Sequence record: MN508624.2
Origin: Enterobacter phage EC-F2
Length of the DNA stretch: 64,000 nt
Strand: one strand, 5' to 3'
The notes beneath the pieces were generated by a model. That model was not told where the DNA came from. It ran no database searches and saw nothing but the letters and a program-made list of their open reading frames with translations. This document shows positions 5,627-18,991 of this stretch, in pieces; the first letter of the stretch is position 1; the number at the start of each line of letters is the position of its first letter. Position numbers and translations under genes: made by a program.

Positions 5627-5965
5627 ATGAGCCGTGAAATTTTACTCCCTGCTGCAAATGCTGTTCATGCTGAAACAATGGAATACATGGAGAAATTCGT
5701 TGAACGCGATAACACCGCGATCATCACTCCTACTCACCTGGACGCGCTCGAAGATCGTCTTCATAAGCAGATTAAAGATCAATTCCCTGAAAAGGTTAGC
5801 CGCAACTTCATTCGTCAGGAAATCGTTGCAATGATGCTGAAACATTACGGCGTTGAAATCTTCGGTGTCGAACCACTGAAACCGAAGAAAGCACGTCAAA
5901 TGCCTAAACAGATCACCGACGAAGCAATCAAGAAATACCAGAAGAAATACGCTAAGAATAAATGA
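5627..5965 (+). CDS. hypothetical protein (112 aa)
   Basis: ORF immediately after redoxin gene. Confidence 0.45.
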   Translation: MSREILLPAANAVHAETMEYMEKFVERDNTAIITPTHLDALEDRLHKQIKDQFPEKVSRNFIRQEIVAMMLKHYGVEIFGVEPLKPKKARQMPKQITDEAIKKYQKKYAKNK

Positions 5966-7389
5966 TCTTTAATACGATTGAATGTGTTCCGTCAAGCGGT
6001 AAAACAAAGGCGATTCTGAACCATATCAATCAAACGGGCGAAAAAGCAATCATCGCTTCGATTTCCATGATGTTATCAAAACAGTCTTATGACTACTACA
6101 TCAACCAGGTAAAAGGGAAACGAGCGGTGATTGTGGACACGGATCACCGAACCAAAAGAACCAATAATGATGCGCTGCGTGAGGTTGTCAAAGATTATGA
6201 TGTGATCTTTATCACTCATGCAGCACTCAAAAACATTGATGACTTTGATTTGTATAAGGATTTTTCCCTGTATATTGACGAAGTTCCTGATTTGGTTGCG
6301 TTCGAAAGTCTGCGATTTAATAGCAATATCAAGCACATACGCGAGATTTGCTTGCCGTTTAGTTGCAATGCCGATGATATCGTTGATTTAAAACTTGACG
6401 AAGAAAAACGAGAACTGGTTACACGATTAGCCTATGATGGTCTTCGTAAACGTGATGATATCGCAATGAAGATGTTCCCGCTTTACCGTGCTCTGTTAGG
6501 GGCTATTCCGGTGAAGATGCAATGTAGCGATTCGGGATATGTCTGTTACTTCGTAGAGGATCATGACGTAAGCCAGTGGAAGTTCAAAAATGTAACCATT
6601 GCTTCATCCAACATCAAAGACACAATTACAGGGAAGATCCTGCAAACGTTTCATGATGTGGAGTTCAAAGATTCATCGCTTCAAAAGCTGGTTGACTTTA
6701 AGCAATACAAAAACACTGGGCGCATACATATACATGTGCTCGCAGAGGGGGATTATTCGCGTTATACGGGCGATCTCTCTCAATCTGGGACGACAGTATA
6801 CACCCAGATTAAAAAACGCGTGGAGGCGCTTCTAGGGGGCGAACAGTTCATCTACTGCACCAACACGTATCGATCGAAGTTTAGCGAGGGGCAAGAAATT
6901 CCGTATAACTCGCACGGATTGAACTTCTATTCGAGCTATACTAACGTGGTAGCATTATTCAGTTACAACCCGTTACCCTGGCTTCGTCAAATGTTGCGAG
7001 CGGTTGCGGTGTCCTCTGGACTCGAAGAGGAAGAATTAGTTGATGCTTATGTTGTCAGTAAATATTACGAACCAGCCTTTCAGTTATGCGCTCGTTCTGA
7101 TATCCGACACAACAACAGCAAACGAAAGATTAATTTATTTGTGCCTGATATGCGGTTAGCGAAATACATGAAGGAAAAATATTTTCCTGATGCCATTATC
7201 GAAACCACAGAAGCAGTTCAAACGAAAAGGCAACGCAAATCATTTCAAACCCTTTTCCAAATGACGGACAAAGAGAAAAACGCTTTTACGCCATACAAGA
7301 AAAGAAACAAATTAGATTATGCGAATCCTCTTCATCACGCGATTGTTAAAGATTGGCTGAACAATTACCGTGAGAAAAAGGCGACTTGA
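5962..7389 (+). CDS. P-loop NTPase (Walker A SSGKT, Walker B-like YIDEV), function unknown
   Basis: 475 aa; ECVPSSGKTKAIL Walker A, LYIDEVPD Walker B-like. Confidence 0.5.
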   Translation: MIFNTIECVPSSGKTKAILNHINQTGEKAIIASISMMLSKQSYDYYINQVKGKRAVIVDTDHRTKRTNNDALREVVKDYDVIFITHAALKNIDDFDLYKDFSLYIDEVPDLVAFESLRFNSNIKHIREICLPFSCNADDIVDLKLDEEKRELVTRLAYDGLRKRDDIAMKMFPLYRALLGAIPVKMQCSDSGYVCYFVEDHDVSQWKFKNVTIASSNIKDTITGKILQTFHDVEFKDSSLQKLVDFKQYKNTGRIHIHVLAEGDYSRYTGDLSQSGTTVYTQIKKRVEALLGGEQFIYCTNTYRSKFSEGQEIPYNSHGLNFYSSYTNVVALFSYNPLPWLRQMLRAVAVSSGLEEEELVDAYVVSKYYEPAFQLCARSDIRHNNSKRKINLFVPDMRLAKYMKEKYFPDAIIETTEAVQTKRQRKSFQTLFQMTDKEKNAFTPYKKRNKLDYANPLHHAIVKDWLNNYREKKAT

Positions 7390-7407
7390 TGGTCGCCTTT
7401 TTTGTTT
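7378..7407 (+). terminator. rho-independent terminator
   Basis: aggcgacttgatggtcgccttttttg overlapping the stop of the ATPase gene. Confidence 0.7.
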
Positions 7408-7446: not shown

Positions 7447-10400
7447 ATGGTAGCTAAATCATTCCGCGCCACAAGTGGCCTTGATGCTGCTGGCGAAAAA
7501 GTTATCAACGTTGGTAAAGCATCGCGCTCCGTGTTGAGTGACGGCGTGAACGTTGACTTTTTTAACGAATTTAACACCGTACAACAGTACGATTCAACCC
7601 GTGGCTATGCTGCTTTCATGGCTATCATTTACGCGCGTCGTATCTGGTACGCTCGCGCTGATATCGCATCACCTGCGGGGGCTTTCGATGAAACAAAGTG
7701 GATCGCAACACGTAATGATCCAAAATGGGTATATAACAACGTAACCAATCCAGACGGCTTGCCTGTTGAGTCTGGTACGTACATGATGTGTGATGGGCGA
7801 TTCTCTGAACTATCGTACATTCTGCCAGATTCCCCGATTGAAGGTGATATTGTAACCTTTAAAGACGGTGGCGGTCTTGCTGGTGTCAACAGCATTCTGG
7901 TACGTTCAAACACTCGTCAGATCCGTCTGCGTGATATTCAGTCAAGCTCTTACCGACTGACTCACCCATATATGACCGTAGCGTTTATCTTCAACGGTAA
8001 CTTATGGCGTGTAGCGGAAATGCGTGATAACCGCGATTCTCAGTTTGTAAACGCAACTGGTTTGCTTCCTTTCCAAATGCAAGCGGGTATGGTAACATTC
8101 CGTAACAGCGGTACAGGTAAAATCACCCTCCAGTTGCCGAAGTATGCAAACGATGGTGATTCAATCACAACCTACGATCTGGATCGTCTTGCTTCGGTGA
8201 ACGTTGCGACTCTGCAAGTTTATCCCGGTAGCGGACACACGATCAGTTATGACGGTATCAATAACGTACCCTCTGTGACTTCACAGCGTTCCGGTTATGG
8301 TATTTTCATGTTCGATCAGGCTAATAACCGTTGGGTTGTTTATGACGGTGATCAGCGCGTTCGTCTGCGTCGTATCAGTGATGACCTGAACATGTTGCCG
8401 AACGATTACGTGTTCATCACTCCGATTGCTGTCAACCCACCAACTGTACGTAATGTAACGCTGACTCTTCCGCAAGATGTTGCAGAAGGTGATCGCGTAT
8501 ATATCAGTATGTACATGATGGGGAAAACGCAGAACTGTACAATCAAAGTTAAAGATGGTTCCGGTGAAAAGATCCGCACCAATAAAAACATGATGCAGTT
8601 CCCACAGCGTAAGGATTATCCGCCTGATGACTGGTTCAGTGTTGACTCTCTGACTTTCAACGCCGATACTGACTATCTTCCATATATGGAACTGTCATAT
8701 CTGAAAGCTACGAAAGAATGGGTAGTTGCACAGTATCGCCCGATCATTGAACGTGTCGATCCAACAAACCGTTCTCGTCTGGGTGTTATCGCACTGGCTA
8801 CACAGGCAGAAGTAAACAAAAACTGGGAAGATTTGCCGTCTGATGAACTGGCAGTAACCCCGCGCACATTGGCGAATAAAACCGCTACTGAAACGCGTCG
8901 TGGTATCGCTCGCCTGGCAACAACTGCGGAAGTTAACCAGAACACGACAGCAACCTTCCTTGATGACGTGATCGTGACGCCTAAAAAGCTGAACGAACGA
9001 TCAGCAACAGAAGATCGTCGTGGGGTGCTGGAAATCGCAACTCAGGCAGAAACAAACGCTGGTACTGATGACACTACCGCAATCACGCCTAAAAAGCTCG
9101 ACACACGCCGCGCGACCGAAACCCTAGCAGGTATCGGAAAACTCGTTACAACGGGGGCTACGACAGCGGAGGGGGCTTTACGTGGGGATGCTGGTACGAA
9201 CGTCTACAACTTCAATAACGGTGTTGATCTGATCACTCCGAAATCATTGAACGAGAAGACGGCGACCGAAAAGTCAAAAGGTCTGGTTGTTCTGGCGACT
9301 GAAAACGAAGTGGTGACTGGTGCTGCTGCGGGATCTGCTTCAATGCCGATCGTAGTAACTCCTGAAATGTTGCATCGCAAAACGTCTACTGAAACGCGTA
9401 TCGGATTGATTGAGATCGCAACCCAGACAGAAACGAACACGGGAACCGATGATCTTCGTGCGGTAACGCCTAAGAAGCTGAACGATCGCAAGGCTACTGA
9501 ATCGCTTGATGGTATTATTGCCCTCGCTACTACTGCGGAAGTTGCAGCAGGCACAGTGACGAATAAGGCAGTGGTTCCGGTTAAGCTGAAAGAGTTCTTC
9601 GACGTTACGAGTCATGTTGCGGTTGCAACTGCTGATGGTTTAACTCAGTCCGGTACTATCTGGACAACGATTAACCTGGGGATTGCGTCTGCTACTGAAA
9701 CACAGCGCGGTACTCTGCGCGTAGCGACTCAGGGTGAAACTGATGCGGGTACTCTGGATAACGTGGTTATCACGCCTAAGAAGCTGCAAGCGAAGAAAGC
9801 GACTGATACCGCCGAAGGTATTATTCGTTGTGCGACTAACGCGGAAGCGGGTGCTGGTACTGCTACTAACCTGGCAATTACTCCGGCTACCATGCAGTTC
9901 TTGAACGGTACTGATCCGGCATGGGGTGCAACGACAACTCGACGCGGTGCGGTGTTCATCACTACCAAATCGAATACGTTCATCGGTGATAATCTGGTTG
10001 GTTCTACTCAGCCCGTAGATAGCTATCTGGAAGATTTCTACGCTGTATCGCCTCGCGGTCTGAACTTTGCTCTACAAAACTTCTTACCGTTGAACGCAAC
10101 AGCACAGAACAGCCTGAAACTGGGCGGTGTGGTAGCTGCAAGCTGGATGCGTCGTGATGCAGATCAAACCGTAACGGGCAACAACACGTTCAACGGTACA
10201 AGCAACTTCGTTGGTAACGTAACCACTAACGGGACTCTGACGGCTAACGCTGCGGTAACTGTTAACAACACCGTAACCACGAACAATAACATTAACCAGT
10301 CTGCGAAAGCAAACACGGTTTATGCTAATACTGTTTTGAGTACAGCAACCGCTGGAACTAAAAACTTGCTTCGTACTTTCCGTGGTGGCGTGACGGATAC

Positions 10401-11106
10401 TACATGGCATGAAACTGTTCAGGGAACTACGTATCGCCTGGCAACTGGCACAACCGACACGACCGACGTTCTGACTGTTGGTGATGTATCTAACGGCACA
10501 ATGGCGTACTCCGGTACTACTCTGCGTCTGAATGGTAAAGCACTGGCTAACACGAACGCAACAGGTGATGTGACCATTGCAAGTGATGCAAGTCCTACGG
10601 TACAATTACGAACCGCTGCAACTAACGGTTGGAACGGTGTAACAATCAGTAATGATAACGGTGTGACTACTGCGACCGTGATCAACACCCGAAACTTTAC
10701 CCAGCATCTTGACAGTACCTATGTCAATACAGCGGGCGATACTATGACTGGTGCGCTGTCAGTTAGCGTAAACGGTACGGGTGGACGCTTTACCAGTGTG
10801 AGCGGTACGGCACATGTTCAGGCGGGTGATTTCTCTGGGAACGTCCAGAAAATGCGCTTAACTGGCATTGACGATAAGGTATTGACTGAGTTCAACATCA
10901 ATATCACCGATTACAACAAAGCGATGATCAACGGAAACCTGATTTATCATGCGGGTCGTCGTCCGACTCCTGCGGAAATCGGTGCTGTTGCGCTGGTGGG
11001 TTCAACCGTTGATACTCTGGTTGTTCGCGACTACATCAAAATCGGTAACGTGAAAATCTTCGCAAATCCAGTCACTAAGGCTTGTGAATTTGTGTGGGAG
11101 GAATAA
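7447..11106 (+). CDS. 34: long tail fibre proximal subunit
   Basis: 1219 aa; N-terminus MVAKSFRATSGLDAAGEKVINV...NTVQQYDSTRGY matches T4 gp34 N-terminus; internal ~30-aa phage tail fibre repeats; C-terminal IKIGNVKIFANPVTKACEFVWEE matches T4 gp34 C-terminus. Confidence 0.9.
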   Translation: MVAKSFRATSGLDAAGEKVINVGKASRSVLSDGVNVDFFNEFNTVQQYDSTRGYAAFMAIIYARRIWYARADIASPAGAFDETKWIATRNDPKWVYNNVTNPDGLPVESGTYMMCDGRFSELSYILPDSPIEGDIVTFKDGGGLAGVNSILVRSNTRQIRLRDIQSSSYRLTHPYMTVAFIFNGNLWRVAEMRDNRDSQFVNATGLLPFQMQAGMVTFRNSGTGKITLQLPKYANDGDSITTYDLDRLASVNVATLQVYPGSGHTISYDGINNVPSVTSQRSGYGIFMFDQANNRWVVYDGDQRVRLRRISDDLNMLPNDYVFITPIAVNPPTVRNVTLTLPQDVAEGDRVYISMYMMGKTQNCTIKVKDGSGEKIRTNKNMMQFPQRKDYPPDDWFSVDSLTFNADTDYLPYMELSYLKATKEWVVAQYRPIIERVDPTNRSRLGVIALATQAEVNKNWEDLPSDELAVTPRTLANKTATETRRGIARLATTAEVNQNTTATFLDDVIVTPKKLNERSATEDRRGVLEIATQAETNAGTDDTTAITPKKLDTRRATETLAGIGKLVTTGATTAEGALRGDAGTNVYNFNNGVDLITPKSLNEKTATEKSKGLVVLATENEVVTGAAAGSASMPIVVTPEMLHRKTSTETRIGLIEIATQTETNTGTDDLRAVTPKKLNDRKATESLDGIIALATTAEVAAGTVTNKAVVPVKLKEFFDVTSHVAVATADGLTQSGTIWTTINLGIASATETQRGTLRVATQGETDAGTLDNVVITPKKLQAKKATDTAEGIIRCATNAEAGAGTATNLAITPATMQFLNGTDPAWGATTTRRGAVFITTKSNTFIGDNLVGSTQPVDSYLEDFYAVSPRGLNFALQNFLPLNATAQNSLKLGGVVAASWMRRDADQTVTGNNTFNGTSNFVGNVTTNGTLTANAAVTVNNTVTTNNNINQSAKANTVYANTVLSTATAGTKNLLRTFRGGVTDTTWHETVQGTTYRLATGTTDTTDVLTVGDVSNGTMAYSGTTLRLNGKALANTNATGDVTIASDASPTVQLRTAATNGWNGVTISNDNGVTTATVINTRNFTQHLDSTYVNTAGDTMTGALSVSVNGTGGRFTSVSGTAHVQAGDFSGNVQKMRLTGIDDKVLTEFNINITDYNKAMINGNLIYHAGRRPTPAEIGAVALVGSTVDTLVVRDYIKIGNVKIFANPVTKACEFVWEE
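8755..9910 (+). repeat. about ten tandem phage-tail-fibre repeats (TPKKLn..AT(E/D)..G...LAT.AE) inside gp34
   Basis: Recurrent ITPKKLNERSATEDRRGVLEIATQAETNAG-type units in translation. Confidence 0.7.
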
Positions 11107-11111
11107 TTTAA

Positions 11112-12704
11112 ATGGCGAATAACGAATTTATGGCGTTATTCGGCCCTGATAGTTTCACGGCGAGTGTGTTTTCAGAAGCAAACGCCGTGAAATATCGCCT
11201 TGTTGTCCGTGGAACGAATAACGATTCTGCGGTCAACTCGGTTGAGGTATCTATTAACGGGGCTGATATTATTAACAGACGAACACAAGCTGCTCGCGGA
11301 ATTAACCTGGCTGTCATTGATGGAACAACTTTAGCATTATTGGATTACAAAGCATTCGATATGTATGGTGATCCTGCTACGAACGGGAATGCGATTAAAG
11401 ACTACCTGAATTCACTTCCAGCGAACAGAATTGTGTGTTTTTATACTTTCGATGCTATCAAAAGTGACGATAACTTTTTAGCAACAATGAGGAAAATAGG
11501 TTCTGTTGCGTGGCCTGAAACTCGGTTCTTTAATATCCCGATCACCACAACCAACTATTCTCACCGTTCATCCTATTCAGCTATCTATTCATCCACGATG
11601 AAAAAGATCTGTATGGAAAACTTTGTCGGTGGTTCTGGTAGTCTGAAAGACAATACAACGAGTTTTGTTGAAGTTGTGTTTGATGAATTCAGTGATATCG
11701 GGGTAACGGGTATTCCAGAAAGAATGGTTGATGATGTTCAGACATACCAGAACAGCGGGGATCTTTACGGCTTCCATACTTACGGGCTATGGTCAATTGG
11801 TAATGATGTTTATCTGGGTGATATCTTCAAATTCACTGGGGATTTGTATTGTTCTAAAGAACTCCGTGATGCTGGGGGAGAAGTTCACCTGTATATGTGG
11901 ACAGAAAACGGTAGCGGACAATGGATCACGTCATCCATTCTTCGAACAACCGGACTAGCCCCCGATCAGTGGCATTCGTTATCAGGATATTTCACCATCC
12001 CGACCGATCCGCTAAATGCTCGAATGGGTTCACAGGTATATCATTACCCGTCAACTGTTAAAGTCGGGCTGGCGCAATGTCGTAACGTCCAGATCACAAA
12101 AGTACCGCGTGAAGAAATAAACCGCAATGGTGCTGCTGTTGGTGTGAATGGTGTTAGAATGCAGACACTTTCCGAAGTGGATTCAAGCGGAAATGAAAAC
12201 CCGATTGATAAATTGCTTTCTCTGCCTGTTTCGCCTACTGGTGTTGTCAGTGATAAGAAAATCATTTCACATAACTTTGCTGAACTTGATTATATTGTTT
12301 CTGATCCGGTTGAATACACTTCAACCAGTACAACAGAATATCAGTTTAAAGAATGGACTGCTACCCAGCAAGCGGCGGTAACGAAAGCATCACTAAGCAG
12401 TTATGGCTTAAAAGCTGGTGATACGATCCGTATGCAATGCCAAATGAAACGCGATGCAAACGCAATCGCCAACAATAAAGGTGCATATATCGTAATGCAG
12501 TTCTGGGACGCGAATAATACGTATATTTCAGGGATCAACATGCGTGATGTTGGTACGATACCTAACGTATATTCATTCTATAAAAACGAAGGTGTTGTTC
12601 CTGCTGGGGCGGTTACTTTCGATTTCGGTTTATATCGTTATCCAAACAGCACAAACATCGGTACGGTATCCGCTAAAGACGTTAAACTGTCAATCGTGAG
12701 ATAA
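11112..12704 (+). CDS. tail fibre hinge connector, gp35-like (putative)
   Basis: 530 aa, position between gp34 and gp36-like gene, RBS GGAGG; assignment by synteny only. Confidence 0.5.
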   Translation: MANNEFMALFGPDSFTASVFSEANAVKYRLVVRGTNNDSAVNSVEVSINGADIINRRTQAARGINLAVIDGTTLALLDYKAFDMYGDPATNGNAIKDYLNSLPANRIVCFYTFDAIKSDDNFLATMRKIGSVAWPETRFFNIPITTTNYSHRSSYSAIYSSTMKKICMENFVGGSGSLKDNTTSFVEVVFDEFSDIGVTGIPERMVDDVQTYQNSGDLYGFHTYGLWSIGNDVYLGDIFKFTGDLYCSKELRDAGGEVHLYMWTENGSGQWITSSILRTTGLAPDQWHSLSGYFTIPTDPLNARMGSQVYHYPSTVKVGLAQCRNVQITKVPREEINRNGAAVGVNGVRMQTLSEVDSSGNENPIDKLLSLPVSPTGVVSDKKIISHNFAELDYIVSDPVEYTSTSTTEYQFKEWTATQQAAVTKASLSSYGLKAGDTIRMQCQMKRDANAIANNKGAYIVMQFWDANNTYISGINMRDVGTIPNVYSFYKNEGVVPAGAVTFDFGLYRYPNSTNIGTVSAKDVKLSIVR

Positions 12705-12727
12705 AGGGGCTTTCGCCCCTTTTTCAT
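12705..12727 (+). terminator. rho-independent terminator
   Basis: aaggggctttcgcccctttttc, followed by late-promoter-like cATAAATAc. Confidence 0.6.
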
Positions 12728-12755
12728 AAATACAGTCATTACAGGAGAAATTTTT

Positions 12756-14921
12756 ATGGCTGATTTGAAATTAGGTACAACGCTTGGTGGTGCGGGTATC
12801 TGGAGTGCTTCTAACCTTCCTCTATTGCCCTCTGGTGGACAATTAACGTATAAAGGCTGGAGAGTATACACAGAAAATGATCGACCAACAGCAGAAGATA
12901 TAAATGCCCTCTCGACGATTAACGGCGGGACTGTTGCAAAGAATACTACATTCAGTCAGAACGTGAATGTAGGGCAGGTGTTAACAGCAAATGATATTCT
13001 TTCTAATACTCGCGTACAAATTGCAAGAACAGGCGGTGCGGGTGCAAACTTAACATTTCGTCGTTATGACGTTACCGGAACCCCTTCTTCGGAAATTGGT
13101 ATCATGGATATCAACGTACACAACGGTTCAGGTCAGTTTGTTGGTGCATTTAACGTTAACGCACGTCCAGACGGCGGTAATAAAATATACTTCCGTGCAT
13201 ACAAAGATGGAACACAGAATACATTATTAACTATAGATTCTCAAACTCAACAGGTAACAGTTGAGCAAGGGTCTTTCCGTGTGATTGGGACTTCTGACCT
13301 CGGCGTGACGAACGCTGCATCAATGGCGGTTAGCGGTGCGGTAACTGCGAATACAGTAACCCCAGCAAATTGGGCTAACCATGATGAACGTTATATCACG
13401 GGTATTCCTCGCGGTATGTATGGAACAAGTTTCGGGGCTGCTGTTGTGACTGAAAAGAATGATGTTCTGACAGTAGGCGGTAACATCACCGACGGTCCAT
13501 ATGGTAACACTACGTATTACGGGCAGGTTGTCAACTATCGCCGTACACTGAATACTGGGGTTTCATTAGTTCAAACATACTTCGGGAACGAAATGTGGTT
13601 TCGTCTTGGATCAGGTTCTCCGGGTGCGTGGTCGTGGAACCAGGGTGATGCTAATGGCTGGCGACGTGTATACGATACGGTCACTCCACCAACTCCGGCA
13701 GAAGTGGGGGCAGTAAACAAAGCTGGTGATACCATGAGTGGTGTTTTAACCCTGGCGTCTACTGGTCAACCGCTTAAAACGCAAGGAGGCGGTATTTTTG
13801 CGAATGACGGAAACGTGTATATCAATAAAAGCGGATTTGCTGGATGGATTGATGCTTTATTCTTGAAAAATACAGGTGGTACTGTAACAGGAACAATTAA
13901 CCAGACAGGCGGGTATTTTGATACATCTACCGAAGGGAGAGGTTCATGGGCTTCACAAAACACCGCAAAAGCTCCAATTTTCCAAACCATTAACACAACA
14001 GCAACTTCCGAATACTGGCCTATTGTTAAACAGTATTACACACAAGCTGGTGGTGCTTGGTCTATGGGTACGTTGGTAAACACTAACCGATTTACCGTTC
14101 ATTACCGCACGAGTTCGGTAGATCGGCAGTGGTATTTTGACAATTCAGGTGAATTTGTATCATCTGGTGAAATTATTACCACCTCGGTAAACGGATTTCG
14201 TATCGCATATGGCAACACCGGATCATTTATTCGTAGTGACGGAAACAACACGTATTTCCTGTTGACAAATAGCGGTGATGTTTATGGTGGATATAACAAT
14301 TTGCGTCCGATTTATTACAGCAACACCACGGGTGCTGTTACAATGGGACATACGTTATCCGTTAATGGTCGTATTAGTCAATCTAGTAGTTATATCGACG
14401 ATGGACAATTATTGTTAAATGGTAGTGGTAGCGGACGTATAGATTTTATTCGCAGTGGTGCAAACCCTCGCGATATGACTATGTTCCATGCTGGTGATGC
14501 TTCTCGTGGAAACCGTATAGAACTTGCTGATACAACATCATATCTGGTTTATTTTGAGCGTCATCCGTCAAGTGGCATTCAGTTGGTAATGAACGGTAAT
14601 GGTAGTTTTAACGATGTATATATTCGTTCTGATGAAAGACTGAAAAGTAATTTCAGTAAGATTGAAAATGCATTGGATAAAGTTGATTTACTTGATGGTA
14701 TGGTGTACGACAAAGCAAATCATATTGGGGGTGAAGAAACTACCCGTGAGGCTGGTTTAGTCGCACAACAACTGCAAGAAGTATTACCGGAAGCCGTTAA
14801 GAAAGGTGTTGATGGTGAACAGAACGAGATCTTAACTGTTTCTTCTTCTGCTGTTATCGCCTTGCTGGTTAACGCGGTAAAAGAACTCCGTGAGGAAGTC
14901 AGGGAACTTAAATCCCGCTAA
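12756..14921 (+). CDS. distal long tail fibre protein with gp36-like N-terminus and C-terminal S74-type intramolecular chaperone
   Basis: 721 aa; N-terminus MADLKLGTTLGGAGIWSASNLPLLPSG matches T4 gp36 MADLKVGSTTGGSVIWHQGNFPLNPAG; C-terminal DVYIRSDERLKSN...AVKELREEVRELK is the auto-cleaving chaperone motif (SD-x-RLK) of endosialidase/T5 pb1 type. Confidence 0.8.
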   Translation: MADLKLGTTLGGAGIWSASNLPLLPSGGQLTYKGWRVYTENDRPTAEDINALSTINGGTVAKNTTFSQNVNVGQVLTANDILSNTRVQIARTGGAGANLTFRRYDVTGTPSSEIGIMDINVHNGSGQFVGAFNVNARPDGGNKIYFRAYKDGTQNTLLTIDSQTQQVTVEQGSFRVIGTSDLGVTNAASMAVSGAVTANTVTPANWANHDERYITGIPRGMYGTSFGAAVVTEKNDVLTVGGNITDGPYGNTTYYGQVVNYRRTLNTGVSLVQTYFGNEMWFRLGSGSPGAWSWNQGDANGWRRVYDTVTPPTPAEVGAVNKAGDTMSGVLTLASTGQPLKTQGGGIFANDGNVYINKSGFAGWIDALFLKNTGGTVTGTINQTGGYFDTSTEGRGSWASQNTAKAPIFQTINTTATSEYWPIVKQYYTQAGGAWSMGTLVNTNRFTVHYRTSSVDRQWYFDNSGEFVSSGEIITTSVNGFRIAYGNTGSFIRSDGNNTYFLLTNSGDVYGGYNNLRPIYYSNTTGAVTMGHTLSVNGRISQSSSYIDDGQLLLNGSGSGRIDFIRSGANPRDMTMFHAGDASRGNRIELADTTSYLVYFERHPSSGIQLVMNGNGSFNDVYIRSDERLKSNFSKIENALDKVDLLDGMVYDKANHIGGEETTREAGLVAQQLQEVLPEAVKKGVDGEQNEILTVSSSAVIALLVNAVKELREEVRELKSR

Positions 14922-14923
14922 TT

Positions 14924-14950
14924 AAAAGCCCTTCGGGGCTTTTTCTTTTT
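14924..14950 (+). terminator. rho-independent terminator
   Basis: aaagcccttcggggctttttctttttat. Confidence 0.65.
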
Positions 14951-14957
14951 ATAAATA
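14950..14957 (+). promoter_or_regulatory. T4-type late promoter TATAAATA
   Basis: Exact TATAAATA 27 nt before ATG 14984. Confidence 0.7.
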
Positions 14958-14983
14958 TCATAAAAGCATTTGAGGATCTAATA

Positions 14984-17197
14984 ATGGCAGATTTAAAAGC
15001 GGGTACTACCGTTGGCGGTAATACTATCTGGAGTCAGGCGAACTTGCCTTTGCTCCCTTCTGGAAACACAATCACATATAAAGGCTTTAAAATCTACACC
15101 GAAAACGATAAGCCAACAAAGGCAGAAATCGGATTAGGCAACGTAACGAACGATGCACAGGTGAAGAAAGCTGGCGACGATATGACCGGATCGTTGAACA
15201 TTACGGGCGCAAACAGTCAATTAACTGTTCCTTATCGTCTGTTGATGCAACGCGCGGTTGCTGGCGATCCGTATGTGTTATTTGTTCGTCCAGATAACAA
15301 CCCTGTATCAAACGGCTATCCGTCAAGCACTCTTCGAGTAATGACTATCACTGCACGTACCGCAACAACAGCAGATCCGGTTTCTGGTGCTAAACTGGCT
15401 AACGTATTAGCAGATCAGACAGCACAGGGTAACGGATCACTAACATTACAAGCATTTGCAGCCCCAAATACAACCACAGGCGCAAGCGGTGCGCGAACAG
15501 CAGAGATTTACCTAAACGGCAACGGTGAAATATCTTTTATCGGAAGTGGGCTGAACATTGGCATGACAACCAGGGTCAATGGTACTTTGTTTGGTACACA
15601 AATGGCAATCAAAGGAGATTCTAACCGAAATCTGTTCTTCCAGGATGCTGGTGGTAATGAACTCGGTTTGATCTATGCCGATACAGGAAAGAACTTATAT
15701 GTTCGTACTGGTGGCGGTGCATACGCAACCAGATTTGCATCTGATGGAACTTTAGTTCTCGCTAACCATCTAACTGTTCCTGGACAGGCTACATTTAATG
15801 GTCTGGGTGTGTTCAATAACCGTGCTTCTGTAGGCGTAGATTACGATTCACAAGGAACAAACTCAGCAATCCTTCGTATTGATACAAGCGGGGATGGAAA
15901 CGCAGTTGGTGATGGTGTTACTCACTTTGGATATAAAGACAGCAACGGACGATACAACCATTATTTCCGTGGTACTGGTTCGACTTTCATCAACACCAAA
16001 TTAGGTCTTAACGTAAACGTACCATCGTATTATAACGACGTTCCACAGGGCACACCAGCACAATATTTCTTGCCTACTGTTGGTCAGGGCGGGAAAAACT
16101 ATTTGCGTCAGTTCCGAGGCGGTAACGCGGACACAATCTGGCATGAAACTGTTCAGGGCGGTACTTATCGTTTAGCAACAGGTAGCACTGATGCGCAGGA
16201 AGAATTGCAGATCTCTACTGCTGGTTATATTCGAGGTCGTAACGAAATTCAATCGGCATCATGTGGTTCTGGTGGACAGTTCCGCGCGGTACAAGGAAAC
16301 TATGGATTCTTTATCCGAAATGATGGTGGTAACACCTATTTCATGCTTACTGAATCTGGAAACCCTTACGGCGCATGGGGTGATCTTCGCCCGTTGGTGA
16401 TTAGCAACGGCACTGGTACTGTGTCTATGAACAACGGTGTTAACGTTGGTGGTGGTTTGGATGTAAGCGGCGCTACTAAGTTCAGCAATGGTATCGGTTG
16501 TGGTACTCCAAACGGATTGGGCGCAAACGCGATATCACTAGGTGATACTGATACTGGTTTTGTTCAAGAAGGCGATGGTATTCTCAACGCTTATGCAAAC
16601 AGTCAACGAATCCAACGATGGACAACGGGGGCTACAGCAGTCTATAAGCAGTTGCAGGTTCAGGGTATTAACGGGCCAGCATTGCTTCTGAATAACACAG
16701 CAAGCAATCAGTCTGTATATATGCTGTTGCAATATGCAGGTAGTAACGCGGGTTATTTGGGTTTTGGTGGTTCTGATAATACCATGTCAATGCACAACTA
16801 TCAGACGAATACAACGATACAATTACGTACTTCCGATCTGTATATGAACCGTGCATTATATGGTGAAAGTACAGGCAACTTTACCGATGTGTATATTCGT
16901 TCGGATCGCCGTCTGAAATCAAATCTGGTTGAGATCAAAGACGCTCTGTTTAAAGTAGAACAGCTTACGGGCTATGTATACGATAAACAATCAAAAGACG
17001 CTGATGAAATTGTATATCACCGTGAATCGGGGTTGATTGCGCAAGATGTTCAGGAAGTATTGCCTGATGCAGTCAAAGAAGATCATAACTCAGGTATGCT
17101 TACGATTTCTCCTGCTGGCGTTAACGCGCTTCTGGTCAACGCAATTAACGAACTGCGCGAACGTCTGGAAGCAATCGAAAACAAATTAGGGGCTTAA
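14984..17197 (+). CDS. distal long tail fibre protein (gp37-like) with gp36-like N-terminus and C-terminal intramolecular chaperone
   Basis: 737 aa; paralog of the previous gene at both termini; internal NYLRQFRGGNADTIWHETVQGGTYRLATGSTD segment shared with gp34 C-region and T4 gp37; DVYIRSDRRLKSN chaperone motif. Confidence 0.8.
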   Translation: MADLKAGTTVGGNTIWSQANLPLLPSGNTITYKGFKIYTENDKPTKAEIGLGNVTNDAQVKKAGDDMTGSLNITGANSQLTVPYRLLMQRAVAGDPYVLFVRPDNNPVSNGYPSSTLRVMTITARTATTADPVSGAKLANVLADQTAQGNGSLTLQAFAAPNTTTGASGARTAEIYLNGNGEISFIGSGLNIGMTTRVNGTLFGTQMAIKGDSNRNLFFQDAGGNELGLIYADTGKNLYVRTGGGAYATRFASDGTLVLANHLTVPGQATFNGLGVFNNRASVGVDYDSQGTNSAILRIDTSGDGNAVGDGVTHFGYKDSNGRYNHYFRGTGSTFINTKLGLNVNVPSYYNDVPQGTPAQYFLPTVGQGGKNYLRQFRGGNADTIWHETVQGGTYRLATGSTDAQEELQISTAGYIRGRNEIQSASCGSGGQFRAVQGNYGFFIRNDGGNTYFMLTESGNPYGAWGDLRPLVISNGTGTVSMNNGVNVGGGLDVSGATKFSNGIGCGTPNGLGANAISLGDTDTGFVQEGDGILNAYANSQRIQRWTTGATAVYKQLQVQGINGPALLLNNTASNQSVYMLLQYAGSNAGYLGFGGSDNTMSMHNYQTNTTIQLRTSDLYMNRALYGESTGNFTDVYIRSDRRLKSNLVEIKDALFKVEQLTGYVYDKQSKDADEIVYHRESGLIAQDVQEVLPDAVKEDHNSGMLTISPAGVNALLVNAINELRERLEAIENKLGA

Positions 17198-17222
17198 TGC
17201 CCCTCTTTAAGAGGAATATTTT

Positions 17223-18035
17223 ATGGCTGTTGTAGGCGTACCTGGTTGGATCGGGTCTTCTGCTGTAAGCGAAACGGGTGAAAGATGGATGTCCGCTGCT
17301 GCGGGACAACTTCGATTATCTGCTGCTGGTTATATGTCACGATTTGCGGGGATCTCCCGCGAACAATCAATAACGATTTCCGCAAGCAACGCATACGCAT
17401 GGTCAACCCTGGTCAATCAGATTAAATCATTGGGTGTGTCCGGTGGTGCATTCAAAATTACTGTTGTCGGGAACATCGTTTCAAGCAGTGCTGGTGCTCC
17501 GTGCCTTAACTTCACATCTGATCTTGCGGGTGTTGATTATATTGAACTGATCATTAACTCTGGTGTAGGTGTTATGGGTCGTGGTGGTGCGGGTGGTGGT
17601 GATAACACAGGTGGCGCGTATTCATCCGGCGAAAATGGTGGTGTCGGTATTACTAACGCGATCGGAAACAAACTGCGAATAACGAACAATGGTTATATTG
17701 CGGGTGGTGGTGGTGGTGGTGGCCTGGTAAACATGCCAACTTCTACATCACGACGTGTACAGGTATCCGGTGGTGGTGGTCGACCTTTCGGTGCTGCTGG
17801 TACAGGTGGTTATGACGGTAACGGTACAGCGGCAACAATTTCCGCTCCTGGTTCCGGTGGTTCTTCGAGTCTATCACAAGCTGGTGCGGGTGGTAACTTA
17901 GGTGCGGCTGGTCAATATCCACCTAAAGCCGATGGTCGTCTGGAAGCTCAAGCGGCGGGTGCTGCGGGTGCTGCGGTTAACGGTAACGCGCCAACGTGGA
18001 GAACTGTAGGGACAATTTACGGTTCGAGAGTTTAA
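17223..18035 (+). CDS. 38: T2-type receptor-recognising adhesin gp38 with glycine-rich motifs
   Basis: 270 aa; MAVVGVPGWIGSSAVSETGERWMSAAAG matches T2 gp38 MAVVGIPGWIGTSAVAETGQRWM; polyglycine GRMs (GGGGGGG) separating variable segments. Confidence 0.85.
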   Translation: MAVVGVPGWIGSSAVSETGERWMSAAAGQLRLSAAGYMSRFAGISREQSITISASNAYAWSTLVNQIKSLGVSGGAFKITVVGNIVSSSAGAPCLNFTSDLAGVDYIELIINSGVGVMGRGGAGGGDNTGGAYSSGENGGVGITNAIGNKLRITNNGYIAGGGGGGGLVNMPTSTSRRVQVSGGGGRPFGAAGTGGYDGNGTAATISAPGSGGSSSLSQAGAGGNLGAAGQYPPKADGRLEAQAAGAAGAAVNGNAPTWRTVGTIYGSRV

Positions 18036-18088
18036 GTAAATTCCTAAATATAATCGGGGGTCGGCATCCCCGAACTTGAGGATTAAAC

Positions 18089-18733
18089 ATGGCGCTATTA
18101 CAAGATAAATTGGCGGTGCTTGAACGGGTAATATCGTTCATCATGGCGGTCAAAACATGGAAACAGTTATTCATTAAATTGGTTCTTATCGTCACTATTT
18201 TCATTATGTTCGTAACATGGTACAAGTGGGATGACTTATTTTCAGTCTGGAAAACATCTTCAAGCGTTATAGACGTGCCGACGATGGAGATTGAAAAGGC
18301 AAAAAAGTTTGAATCCGCATCCATCGAACAGTTAAACATAGTGCATTTAACTACGGGTGCGGATTTTTCGGCAATCTTTGGGTTCAGACCTAAGAATGTC
18401 AATTATTTTGTTGATATAATTGCGTATGAAGGGAAGTTACCGCAACAGATTAACCCGAAAAATCTGGGTGGCTATCCTATAGACAAGACATCGGAAGAGT
18501 ATAATAGACATATAAACGGGCTGTACTATATCTCAGATATTGCAAGCCCGTATCTTCCAACAAAAGACCTTGTTCCGGTAGCATATACCTTTAGTTGTCC
18601 TTATTTCAATCTAGAAAACTACTATTCTGGATCGATTCTAATGGAATGGTATATACAGAAGCCCGAAGTCACCGATACGAAGTTGATGATCGTGTGCAAT
18701 CAGGCCGCTAGAATTTTAGGCAGGGTTCGATGA
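18089..18733 (+). CDS. t: holin
   Basis: 214 aa, single N-terminal TM; ...FESASIEQLNIVHLTTGADFSAIFGFRPKNVNYFVDIIAYEGKLP...CPYFNLENYYSGSILMEWY...ICNQAARILGRV matches T4 gp t almost motif for motif. Confidence 0.9.
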   Translation: MALLQDKLAVLERVISFIMAVKTWKQLFIKLVLIVTIFIMFVTWYKWDDLFSVWKTSSSVIDVPTMEIEKAKKFESASIEQLNIVHLTTGADFSAIFGFRPKNVNYFVDIIAYEGKLPQQINPKNLGGYPIDKTSEEYNRHINGLYYISDIASPYLPTKDLVPVAYTFSCPYFNLENYYSGSILMEWYIQKPEVTDTKLMIVCNQAARILGRVR

Positions 18734-18991
18734 TAATTTCAGTTTCAAACCGCTTAAAGCCCGATTGATGAAATCTTTTACTTTCGTCATCTGGTTTTTA
18801 TCGTATATGTCCCATACGCGCATGAGTTCGTAAGGTGTCGGAACATATTCATCGTTCCAGTATCCAACATTACCTATCGTAATGCGCCGGAAACCAGCCT
18901 CTACGCTGTGATATACAAAGAACCCAGCCTTACCCACAGGGGCGACTTTAAAACCGCGTGTAGCGGCTTTCATGGCTTCGTCGTGTGTCAT
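18716..18991 (-). CDS. hypothetical protein (91 aa), syntenic position of asiA
   Basis: ORF convergent with t; no similarity to AsiA recognised. Confidence 0.4.
   Translation of the reverse strand: MTHDEAMKAATRGFKVAPVGKAGFFVYHSVEAGFRRITIGNVGYWNDEYVPTPYELMRVWDIYDKNQMTKVKDFINRALSGLKLKLSSNPA

Follow-up and report, generated by a model that had tools for sequence, protein, structure and literature searches.

The question raised by the distal tail-fibre locus of Enterobacter phage EC-F2 (MN508624.2; the window is the whole stretch of 64,000 nucleotides that was analysed) is how one phage makes use of two consecutive fibre genes of nearly equal size. Directly downstream of the gene for a long homologue of the knee or hinge protein gp35 (530 aa, against 372 aa in T4; 11112-12704, + strand), the presumed docking partner, lie gene A (721 aa; 12756-14921, +) and gene B (737 aa; 14984-17197, +). 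Both code for distal fibre proteins, which in the annotation of relatives are called 'gp36' or 'small distal subunit' and 'gp37' or 'large distal subunit', respectively. They are followed by the gene of a T2/S16-type gp38 adhesin with polyglycine motifs (270 aa; 17223-18035, +), which was identified by Pfam and is regarded as the partner of B. An original prediction, made from the DNA letters, had placed these three genes at the same coordinates and had offered two readings: two alternative distal half-fibres, or an unusual serial arrangement in which B docks onto the auto-cleaved end of A. Judged by comparison with related loci, it is likely (at a probability of roughly 0.72) that A and B are autonomous distal half-fibres, which both plug into the knee by a gp36-type anchor, B presenting gp38 and A its own chaperone-matured tip.

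In the arrangement we favour, a trimer of A and a trimer of B would each dock at the gp35 knee through the gp36-type anchor, and each fibre would fold with the help of its own C-terminal S74 chaperone, which would then cut itself off (at Ser625 in A and Ser640 in B). The matured tip of B would carry the gp38 adhesin and the matured tip of A would bind its receptor unaided. The phage would thus probably carry two receptor specificities, which could be exchanged independently by recombination. We infer the docking of both proteins on gp35, the presence of both in virions and the binding of a receptor by A; the docking itself is suggested by the homology of the anchors and the position of the genes directly downstream of gp35.

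The two proteins were compared by BLASTP and assigned to families by Pfam (reporting at E <= 0.01). The pairwise alignment of the termini, a check that had been set beforehand, yielded a common N-terminus (residues 1-62, 36 of 62 identical, 58%, E 6e-19) and a common C-terminus (54 of 107 identical, 50%, E 1e-26), and a third common block that was absent from the original prediction was found between residues 481-545 of A and 433-497 of B (49%, E 1e-14). The N-terminal block (12756-12941 in A and 14984-15169 in B, both +) is an anchor of gp36 type: A 1-106 matches T4 gp36 1-99 (39%, E 2e-18), B 1-48 matches T4 gp36 1-48 (56%, E 3e-15), and the pattern MADLK...GG..IW...N.P...G...Y...+Y.E..KP is present in both, the Pfam gp36 family itself not being reported for A at E <= 0.01. 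The C-terminal block contains a Peptidase_S74 domain (PF13884) at residues 625-682 of A and 640-698 of B (E ~7e-14; 6.6e-14 for B). The corresponding intramolecular chaperones span aa 625-721 of A (14628-14918, +) and aa 640-737 of B (16901-17194, +), the latter matching the S16 gp37 fragment 6F45. Autocleavage of S74 chaperones is known from endosialidase, T5 pb1 and T2/S16 gp37, and by analogy the chaperones of A and B are predicted to cleave themselves at Ser625 (DVYIR-S-DERLK) and Ser640, as the aligned motifs YIR-S625-DERLK and YIR-S640-DRRLK suggest.

Between the anchor and the chaperone the proteins resemble various parts of known long tail fibres. Both contain a Gp34_trimer match, gp37_trimer (PF20744) is found in B only and at 22.0 bits barely exceeds its cut-off of 21.7, and both match internal pieces of T4 gp34 and gp37 (B at gp37 339-408 and gp34 1048-1113). 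The distal part of A (~394-624) has homologues in the distal parts of two terminal fibres, a T2-like gp37 (residues ~674-1100 of the 1273 of slur04 gp37) and a P2-like Yersinia phage fibre of 764 aa (residues 552-705), and in RB43 the stretch 496-755 of A is 44% identical to 557-809 of B, the end that bears gp38. Based on these alignments, A can be described as a gp37-like distal body headed by gp36, and B as a gp37 body whose gp36 head counts 48 residues. In the comparison with the T4 proteins, no match to T4 gp36 100-221 or T4 gp37 1-338 was obtained in A or B. The gp36-like N-terminus and the S74-type chaperone that had been predicted for both proteins were thus recovered with T4 gp36 and Pfam, and the predicted contrast with T4, in which gp36 counts 221 aa and gp37 1026 aa, holds as well, given that neither A nor B shows similarity to the N-terminus of T4 gp37.

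The second half of the anchor (Y-T-E-N-D-K-P-T-x-x-E-I-G ... G-D-x-M-T-G; B aa 36-73, 15089-15202) recurs within A at aa 304-341 (13665-13780). A similar stretch (HAGRRPTPAEIGAV) occurs in the C-terminus of the phage's own gp34 (~10950-11106), and a profile search located the motif internally in many unrelated long fibres. From this distribution it looks like a general start of a fibre segment and not like part of a gp35-specific interface.

The same domain make-up can be held to describe one serial fibre, gp34-gp35-A-B-gp38, in which A would be a long gp36 whose chaperone-matured C-terminus docks the N-terminus of B, so that the distal half would be as long as in T4. The match of A to T4 gp36 extends over ~100 aa, and B combines gp37-like segments with a gp38-docking tip; the gene order is that of g36-g37; neither gene appears to have been lost from any of the 63 records of the genus; and docking on a tip matured by an intramolecular chaperone has a precedent in gp38 on T2/S16 gp37 (PMC9569957). 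In addition, the mature lengths of A and B (624 + 639 = 1263 aa) add up to nearly the 1247 aa of T4 gp36 plus gp37. Nevertheless, the anchor of B is at least as gp36-like as that of A, and the modules that form the T4-type junction are absent from A and B. In the canonical T4-like loci that were examined, gp35 has 372-382 aa (678 aa in one case), gp36 has 216-234 aa and carries the T4 gp36 C-module, and gp37 carries the T4 gp37 N-module. Even in locus L035, where gp36 is 925 aa long, gp37 begins with this N-module, which implies that the N-module goes with serial joining. It is absent in the phages with two anchors, namely Pseudotevenvirus, KVP40 and the Aeh1-like PX29. Considering the fact that distal half-fibres span 494 to ~1600 aa across T4-like phages, with Erwinia phage Cronus at the lower end, where one anchor-bearing protein of 494 aa, encoded between gp35 and holin, makes up the whole distal half, the length match is weak evidence that loses most of its weight, and we dropped it as an argument. 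Two further ideas were rejected on the basis of profile comparisons: a distant relation of the gp36 anchor to the N-domain of gp38, which would make docking of B on a tip plausible (hhalign probability 0.1%), and mimicry of the gp34 C-terminus by the mature end of A, which would imply a second knee and a second gp35 (hhalign probability 0.4%).

The strongest evidence for autonomous fibres, read from the sequence records, is provided by natural variants of the locus, which were reached via homologues of the 530-aa gp35 (41-97% identity). The metagenomic locus L048 has a gp35 of 521 aa (70% identity) followed by one 865-aa fibre, a terminator and the holin gene. The fibre is orthologous to A (51-54% over the first ~335 residues) and ends in an S74 chaperone of the type found in A of Pantoea phage Phynn, and neither B nor gp38 was found downstream of gp35 in this locus. 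Pectobacterium phage POP12 likewise has, behind a gp35 of 515 aa, one 800-aa anchor-bearing fibre and then holin. The metagenomic locus L042 (SRR25375751, 11637-16731; gp35 of 527 aa) contains a first fibre of 701 aa with anchor and intramolecular chaperone, a 156-aa Gp38_N protein (E 2e-23), a Caudo_TAP protein of 176 aa, a second fibre of 632 aa with an anchor and no such chaperone, and holin. Here the adhesin gene follows directly on the first fibre and not on the second, and the two fibres use different systems of tip maturation. The loci L043 and L044 (gp35 of 529 and 526 aa, respectively) both have two anchor-bearing fibres without intramolecular chaperone, each followed by a small open reading frame (ORF). 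Those of L043 match Caudo_TAP below the threshold (19.1 and 21.9 bits, cut-off 22.1), and those of L044 have no Pfam hit and show a motif that resembles the Caudo_TAP protein of L042. The contig P0011 was too short to provide gene context.

The reverse situation is found in coliphage Lw1 (KC801932.2; ~1710 in L046), where a frameshifting deletion of 14 nt affects codons 5-10 of A, and B and gp38 are intact. The depositors annotated the coding sequence of A from an internal Met, so that the first 23 residues of the anchor are absent. The RB43 reference sequence (NC_007023) shows, relative to the intact RB43-GVA, a 1-nt deletion around codon 20 of A and three 1-nt insertions within the 35 nt downstream. 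Lw1 and RB43 were both grown on E. coli B/BL21. The lesions could mean that an accessory fibre has decayed in the laboratory, although those of RB43 may instead be errors of sequencing; such decay in phages propagated on rough laboratory E. coli would have a parallel in the stf frameshift of laboratory lambda. Judged from these records, A-only and effectively B-only phages both seem to exist, which suggests that either fibre may be able to work alone. In T4, gene 36 mutants are fibreless, and a serial fibre should therefore not tolerate the loss of A. It is because of the A-only L048, the single-fibre POP12, the frameshifted A of Lw1 and the first fibre with gp38 in L042 that we favour two distal half-fibres, the first of the readings originally proposed. 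The serial docking of B on the cleaved end of A fits these four poorly, and we consider it unlikely.

The variation within the genus, determined pairwise among 10 members of Pseudotevenvirus, is in line with this. A and B have the same profile: a near-invariant anchor (82-100% identity in A, 92-100% in B), a moderately conserved proximal shaft, a hypervariable module of 170-270 residues right before the chaperone (13-99% in A, 9-100% in B) and a conserved chaperone. In the window the hypervariable module of A comprises aa 328-600 (13737-14555, +) and includes the Gp34_trimer-like domain (aa 439-521), and that of B comprises aa 447-630 (16322-16873, +) and ends in the gp37_trimer-type tip (aa 566-632), where gp38 presumably docks. 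The tip types of A and those of B group the phages differently, which indicates that the tips are exchanged independently. Being as hypervariable as that of B, and homologous to distal parts of terminal fibres, the distal part of A has the look of a free end. If the anchor of B were seated on the matured end of A, some co-variation between the two would be expected; none was seen among the 10 members. In Margaery, the distal ~300 aa of A have been replaced (15% identity) and the segment preceding the cleavage site is 54% identical to that of the EC-F2 protein, and the B anchor is 100% identical; in RB43, the last 24 mature residues of A are 33% identical and the B anchor 92%. The only conserved element at the mature end of A is G-x-F-N-D-V-Y-I-R (GSFNDVYIR) beside the scissile serine, and B has the same motif.

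The anchors of A and B also differ in a consistent way, with the signatures GGAG.W.AS in A and GGNT.W.QA in B. Such paralogue-specific residues are kept in the distant Phynn, L043 and L044, which argues for an old duplication with both copies under selection. However, in a neighbour-joining tree of the 48-aa anchors, which are too short for a robust tree, the two anchors of L042 cluster together, and the single-gp36 phage L035 also bears the A-type signature, so that the argument from the signatures is only suggestive.

The connection of gp38 with B is corroborated by the adhesin itself. The 270-aa protein matches GP38 (PF05268; E 1.3e-48) and Gp38_N (PF21721; E 2.1e-17), in agreement with the predicted T2-type adhesin gene after B. 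Among the same 10 members, the types of the gp38 N-domain track the C-terminal types of B, with ENT3 and Nando standing apart in both, and not those of A. Within the genus gp38 has been swapped wholesale. A direct check gave the polyglycine T2/S16 type (270-271 aa) for EC-F1 and its close relative phi5. Three more close relatives, EC-W2, EcL22g and EcRAM-01, appear to carry a T2-type gp38 as well, judged from annotations and match patterns, and most other members have the RB43-type adhesin of 172-176 aa. The two types share only the first ~45 residues, which constitute the gp37-docking domain. B thus resembles the gp37 of the T2/S16 gp37-gp38 module in its S74 chaperone, its gp37_trimer-type tip and the adjacent GP38/Gp38_N gene, and differs from T2 and T4 gp37 in that it starts with a gp36-type anchor, has only ~640 aa in its mature form and lacks a short gp36 upstream. 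A, which like T4 gp36 directly follows gp35, shares its first ~100 aa with that protein (~48 aa in the case of B), and differs from it in its length of 721 aa, in the lack of the gp36 C-module that meets gp37 and in its end, formed by a gp37-like module and the S74 chaperone.

The transcription signals were read from the sequence. Upstream of A, a hairpin with T-run (12706-12724, +) precedes the late-promoter-like CATAAATA (12725-12732), which agrees with the late-promoter consensus TATAAATA at 7/8 positions, and between A and B a terminator-like hairpin with T-run (14924-14949, +) precedes an exact TATAAATA (14950-14957). The terminators and late promoters that had been described earlier were therefore largely found as stated. 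A late-promoter motif was not found between B and gp38, where the sole feature is a hairpin enclosing the stop codon of B, and gp38 is therefore probably co-transcribed with B.

The disruption of A in Lw1, and perhaps that in the RB43 reference, with viability retained, may also be taken to mean that in the mature virion A stands outside the long tail fibre, either attached elsewhere (baseplate, collar) or as a paralogue in decay or little use, which is produced and left unincorporated. KVP40-like phages, for instance, have as many as seven fibre proteins, mounted at different sites (PMC12028318). Yet the anchor of A is 82-100% conserved, its reading frame is intact in the genomes examined apart from Lw1 and the RB43 reference, and it has a late-promoter-like motif of its own. 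Furthermore, L048 has an orthologue of A immediately after gp35 as its sole distal fibre, and the locus showed no gp35-like gene besides gp35 itself. We regard a role for A outside the long tail fibre as quite improbable. The co-assembly of A and B into mixed trimers, one of two possibilities put forward by Trojet et al. 2011 (PMC3157838), could draw on the N-terminal, central and chaperone domains that A and B have in common. Outside these three blocks, however, the proteins bear no relation to each other in sequence, and the blocks do not line up (A 481-545 versus B 433-497); moreover, the distal modules are swapped independently and either protein can be absent in relatives, which makes mixed trimers highly improbable.

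Two anchor-bearing fibres at one knee raise the question whether both are held there at once. In a branched fibre one gp35 would carry A and B simultaneously, giving six Y-shaped fibres, each with two different receptor-binding tips; in the alternative-occupancy version a given knee would carry A or B, giving a mixed set of six fibres. The AlphaFold2 model of gp35 (mean predicted local distance difference test score, pLDDT, 75.7) consists of an N-domain (~28-200), a beta-sandwich (205-332), a disordered linker (337-391) and a second beta-sandwich (392-530), in which the secondary-structure pattern of the first returns, shifted by 200 residues. A second match to T4 gp35 218-296 falls at residues 421-503. 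In the branched version, this gained tandem beta-sandwich, which resembles a carbohydrate-binding module, would on its flexible linker allow one knee to hold both fibres, and the paralogue-specific residues in the anchors of A and B would reflect two non-equivalent docking sites. The duplicated domain is in the model a candidate second docking site, and it could equally be an extra lectin-like module. The single-fibre relatives keep the second sandwich, and it therefore counts neither for nor against branching, which we put forward as a tentative proposal, possible and on balance doubtful.

The extra gp35 domain was also considered as a mark of two-fibre phages and rejected, as it is clade-specific and kept in the single-fibre POP12 and L048; the same idea in terms of gp35 size fails on the canonical locus L027, which combines a 678-aa gp35 (7908-9944) with one short gp36. 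The ILEI domain of gp35 was rejected as a novelty, as T4 gp35 has it too. Elsewhere gp35 homologues are larger still, with the 678 aa of L027 and 895 aa in PX29 (L041, 5933-8620). Together, these sequences suggest that the T4 model understates the plasticity of the knee protein.

Several points weigh against two autonomous half-fibres. T4 gp35 is a monomer with one known docking site. The summed mature length and the gene order are what a serial fibre would give, and A retains more of gp36 (~100 aa) and B more of gp37, as would be the case in such a fibre. Of the natural variants, L048 and L042-L044 are metagenomic assemblies, in which the repeats common to A and B could have caused mis-assembly. 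The A protein of Lw1 might restart at the internal Met, as annotated, and still function, and the 1-nt indels in RB43 may be sequencing errors, considering that RB43-GVA is intact. Finally, the literature on RB43-like fibres yielded no proteomic, structural, electron-microscopic or genetic work beyond Trojet et al. 2011, and no solved structure of gp35 or gp36 was found.

A wider comparison shows how often the gp36 anchor is combined with a long fibre. Like the EC-F2 locus, KVP40 and the Aeh1-like sets have two fibres with a gp36-type anchor: KVP40 has fibres of 1094 and 1085 aa, both with intramolecular chaperone, and the Aeh1-like Aeromonas phage PX29 has fibres of 1384 and 1278 aa, so that each of these alone is as long as the complete T4 distal half-fibre. 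An earlier word-indexed search with the 121-aa N-terminus gave only 2 proteins. An exhaustive HMMER search with an anchor profile made from A and B against 1.84 billion cluster representatives resulted in 256 hits. Of the best 150 of these hits, 125 (93-1520 aa) have the anchor at residue 1, and among these 125, 17 proteins are shorter than 300 aa, 95 have at least 600 aa and 49 (540-1504 aa) carry an S74 chaperone. Given that few of the 125 are short, the gp36 anchor with a long fibre and intramolecular chaperone is, as far as sequence space goes, a common architecture, and the short T4 gp36 a minority form.

At the level of virions, the proteome of a KVP40-like Schizotequatrovirus was found to contain fibre proteins of 100 kDa and 59 kDa, a 56-kDa fibre with intramolecular chaperone and a 122-kDa protein (PMC12028318, supplement); on the basis of size, annotation and gene order, and not of sequence, the 100-kDa and 59-kDa proteins were matched to the pair of fibres with anchor in the related phage D491s. 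Together with the intact and conserved genes of A and B, this offers indirect support for two different fibre proteins in one virion. Another parallel is found in the T5-like phage DT57C (Golomidova et al. 2016, cited in PMC9569957), the virion of which bears in LtfA and LtfB a pair of fibre proteins that have chaperone domains and differ in their tips. Branching in DT57C, with LtfB attaching to LtfA, was reportedly shown genetically. In the EC-F2 locus the attachment site is only inferred, and as a further difference both proteins bear the same anchor.

To determine the distribution of the anchor among phages, the 62-aa N-terminus of A was used as a tblastn query, and 1546 places in 1437 phage records were recovered. 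In the sampled records two copies occur in Pseudotevenvirus and in KVP40-like vibriophages, and the other sampled T4-like genera have one copy, which is gp36. Bases 11000-18800 of the window are over their whole length 99.3% identical to Enterobacter phage EC-F1 (MN508623.2; Straboviridae, Pseudotevenvirus, RB43 group), in the annotation of which only gp34 and holin are named among the genes of the locus, the rest being 'hypothetical protein'. The same bases match 63 phage records, with Enterobacter, Cronobacter, Citrobacter, Klebsiella and Escherichia as hosts, and the gene pair appears to be kept across these 63 Pseudotevenvirus records. In the 10 genus members and the distant Pantoea phage Phynn, the order is gp35 (526-533 aa), A (715-759 aa), B (729-822 aa), gp38 and holin. 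By these comparisons, the pair is the standard locus of the genus and not peculiar to the window. RB43, RB16, Lw1, CfP1 and phages of Cronobacter, Citrobacter, Klebsiella and Enterobacter share it.

In RB43 the same locus (gp34, gp35 of 526-533 aa, two fibres of 715-822 aa with anchor and intramolecular chaperone, gp38, holin) was described by Trojet et al. 2011 in Genome Biol Evol (PMC3157838) as a 'duplication of g37' with an 'unclear' function, for which a random mixture or a single expressed copy were considered. EC-F1 and, as it appears, its four close relatives named above differ from RB43 in their T2-type gp38 of 270 aa, as opposed to the RB43-type adhesin of 172-176 aa. The statement in the original prediction that the pair is the least T4-like feature and the most likely site of novel biology was thus too strong, as the pair appears to be genus-wide and was put on record for RB43 in 2011; the new element is the comparative argument on how the paired fibres are built.

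The proximal half-fibre gp34 (1219 aa; 7447-11106, +) is 45% identical to T4 gp34 over 972 aa, and holin t (214 aa) is encoded at 18089-18733 (+). Directly upstream of gp34 lies an ORF of 475 aa (5963-7390), the homologues of which have no recorded Pfam hit. It occurs at the same place and with the same length (474-475 aa) in nearly all relatives examined of the clade with the long gp35, distant metagenomic ones included; POP12 has no ORF of ~475 aa upstream of gp34.

Pseudotevenvirus phages such as Nando and Taquito are used in cocktails against Enterobacter, Klebsiella and Cronobacter (PMC12578640). If it is true that every virion bears two exchangeable distal half-fibres, then host range, the identification of receptors, routes to resistance and fibre engineering would in these phages concern two tips. 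The textbook chain gp34-35-36-37 would in that case be one arrangement among several, and the gp36 N-terminus would be a general plug for mounting different fibres on the gp35 knee, with which the 125 anchor-bearing representatives of 93-1520 aa fit. The role of the 'duplicated g37' of RB43, a question since 2011, now looks directly testable.

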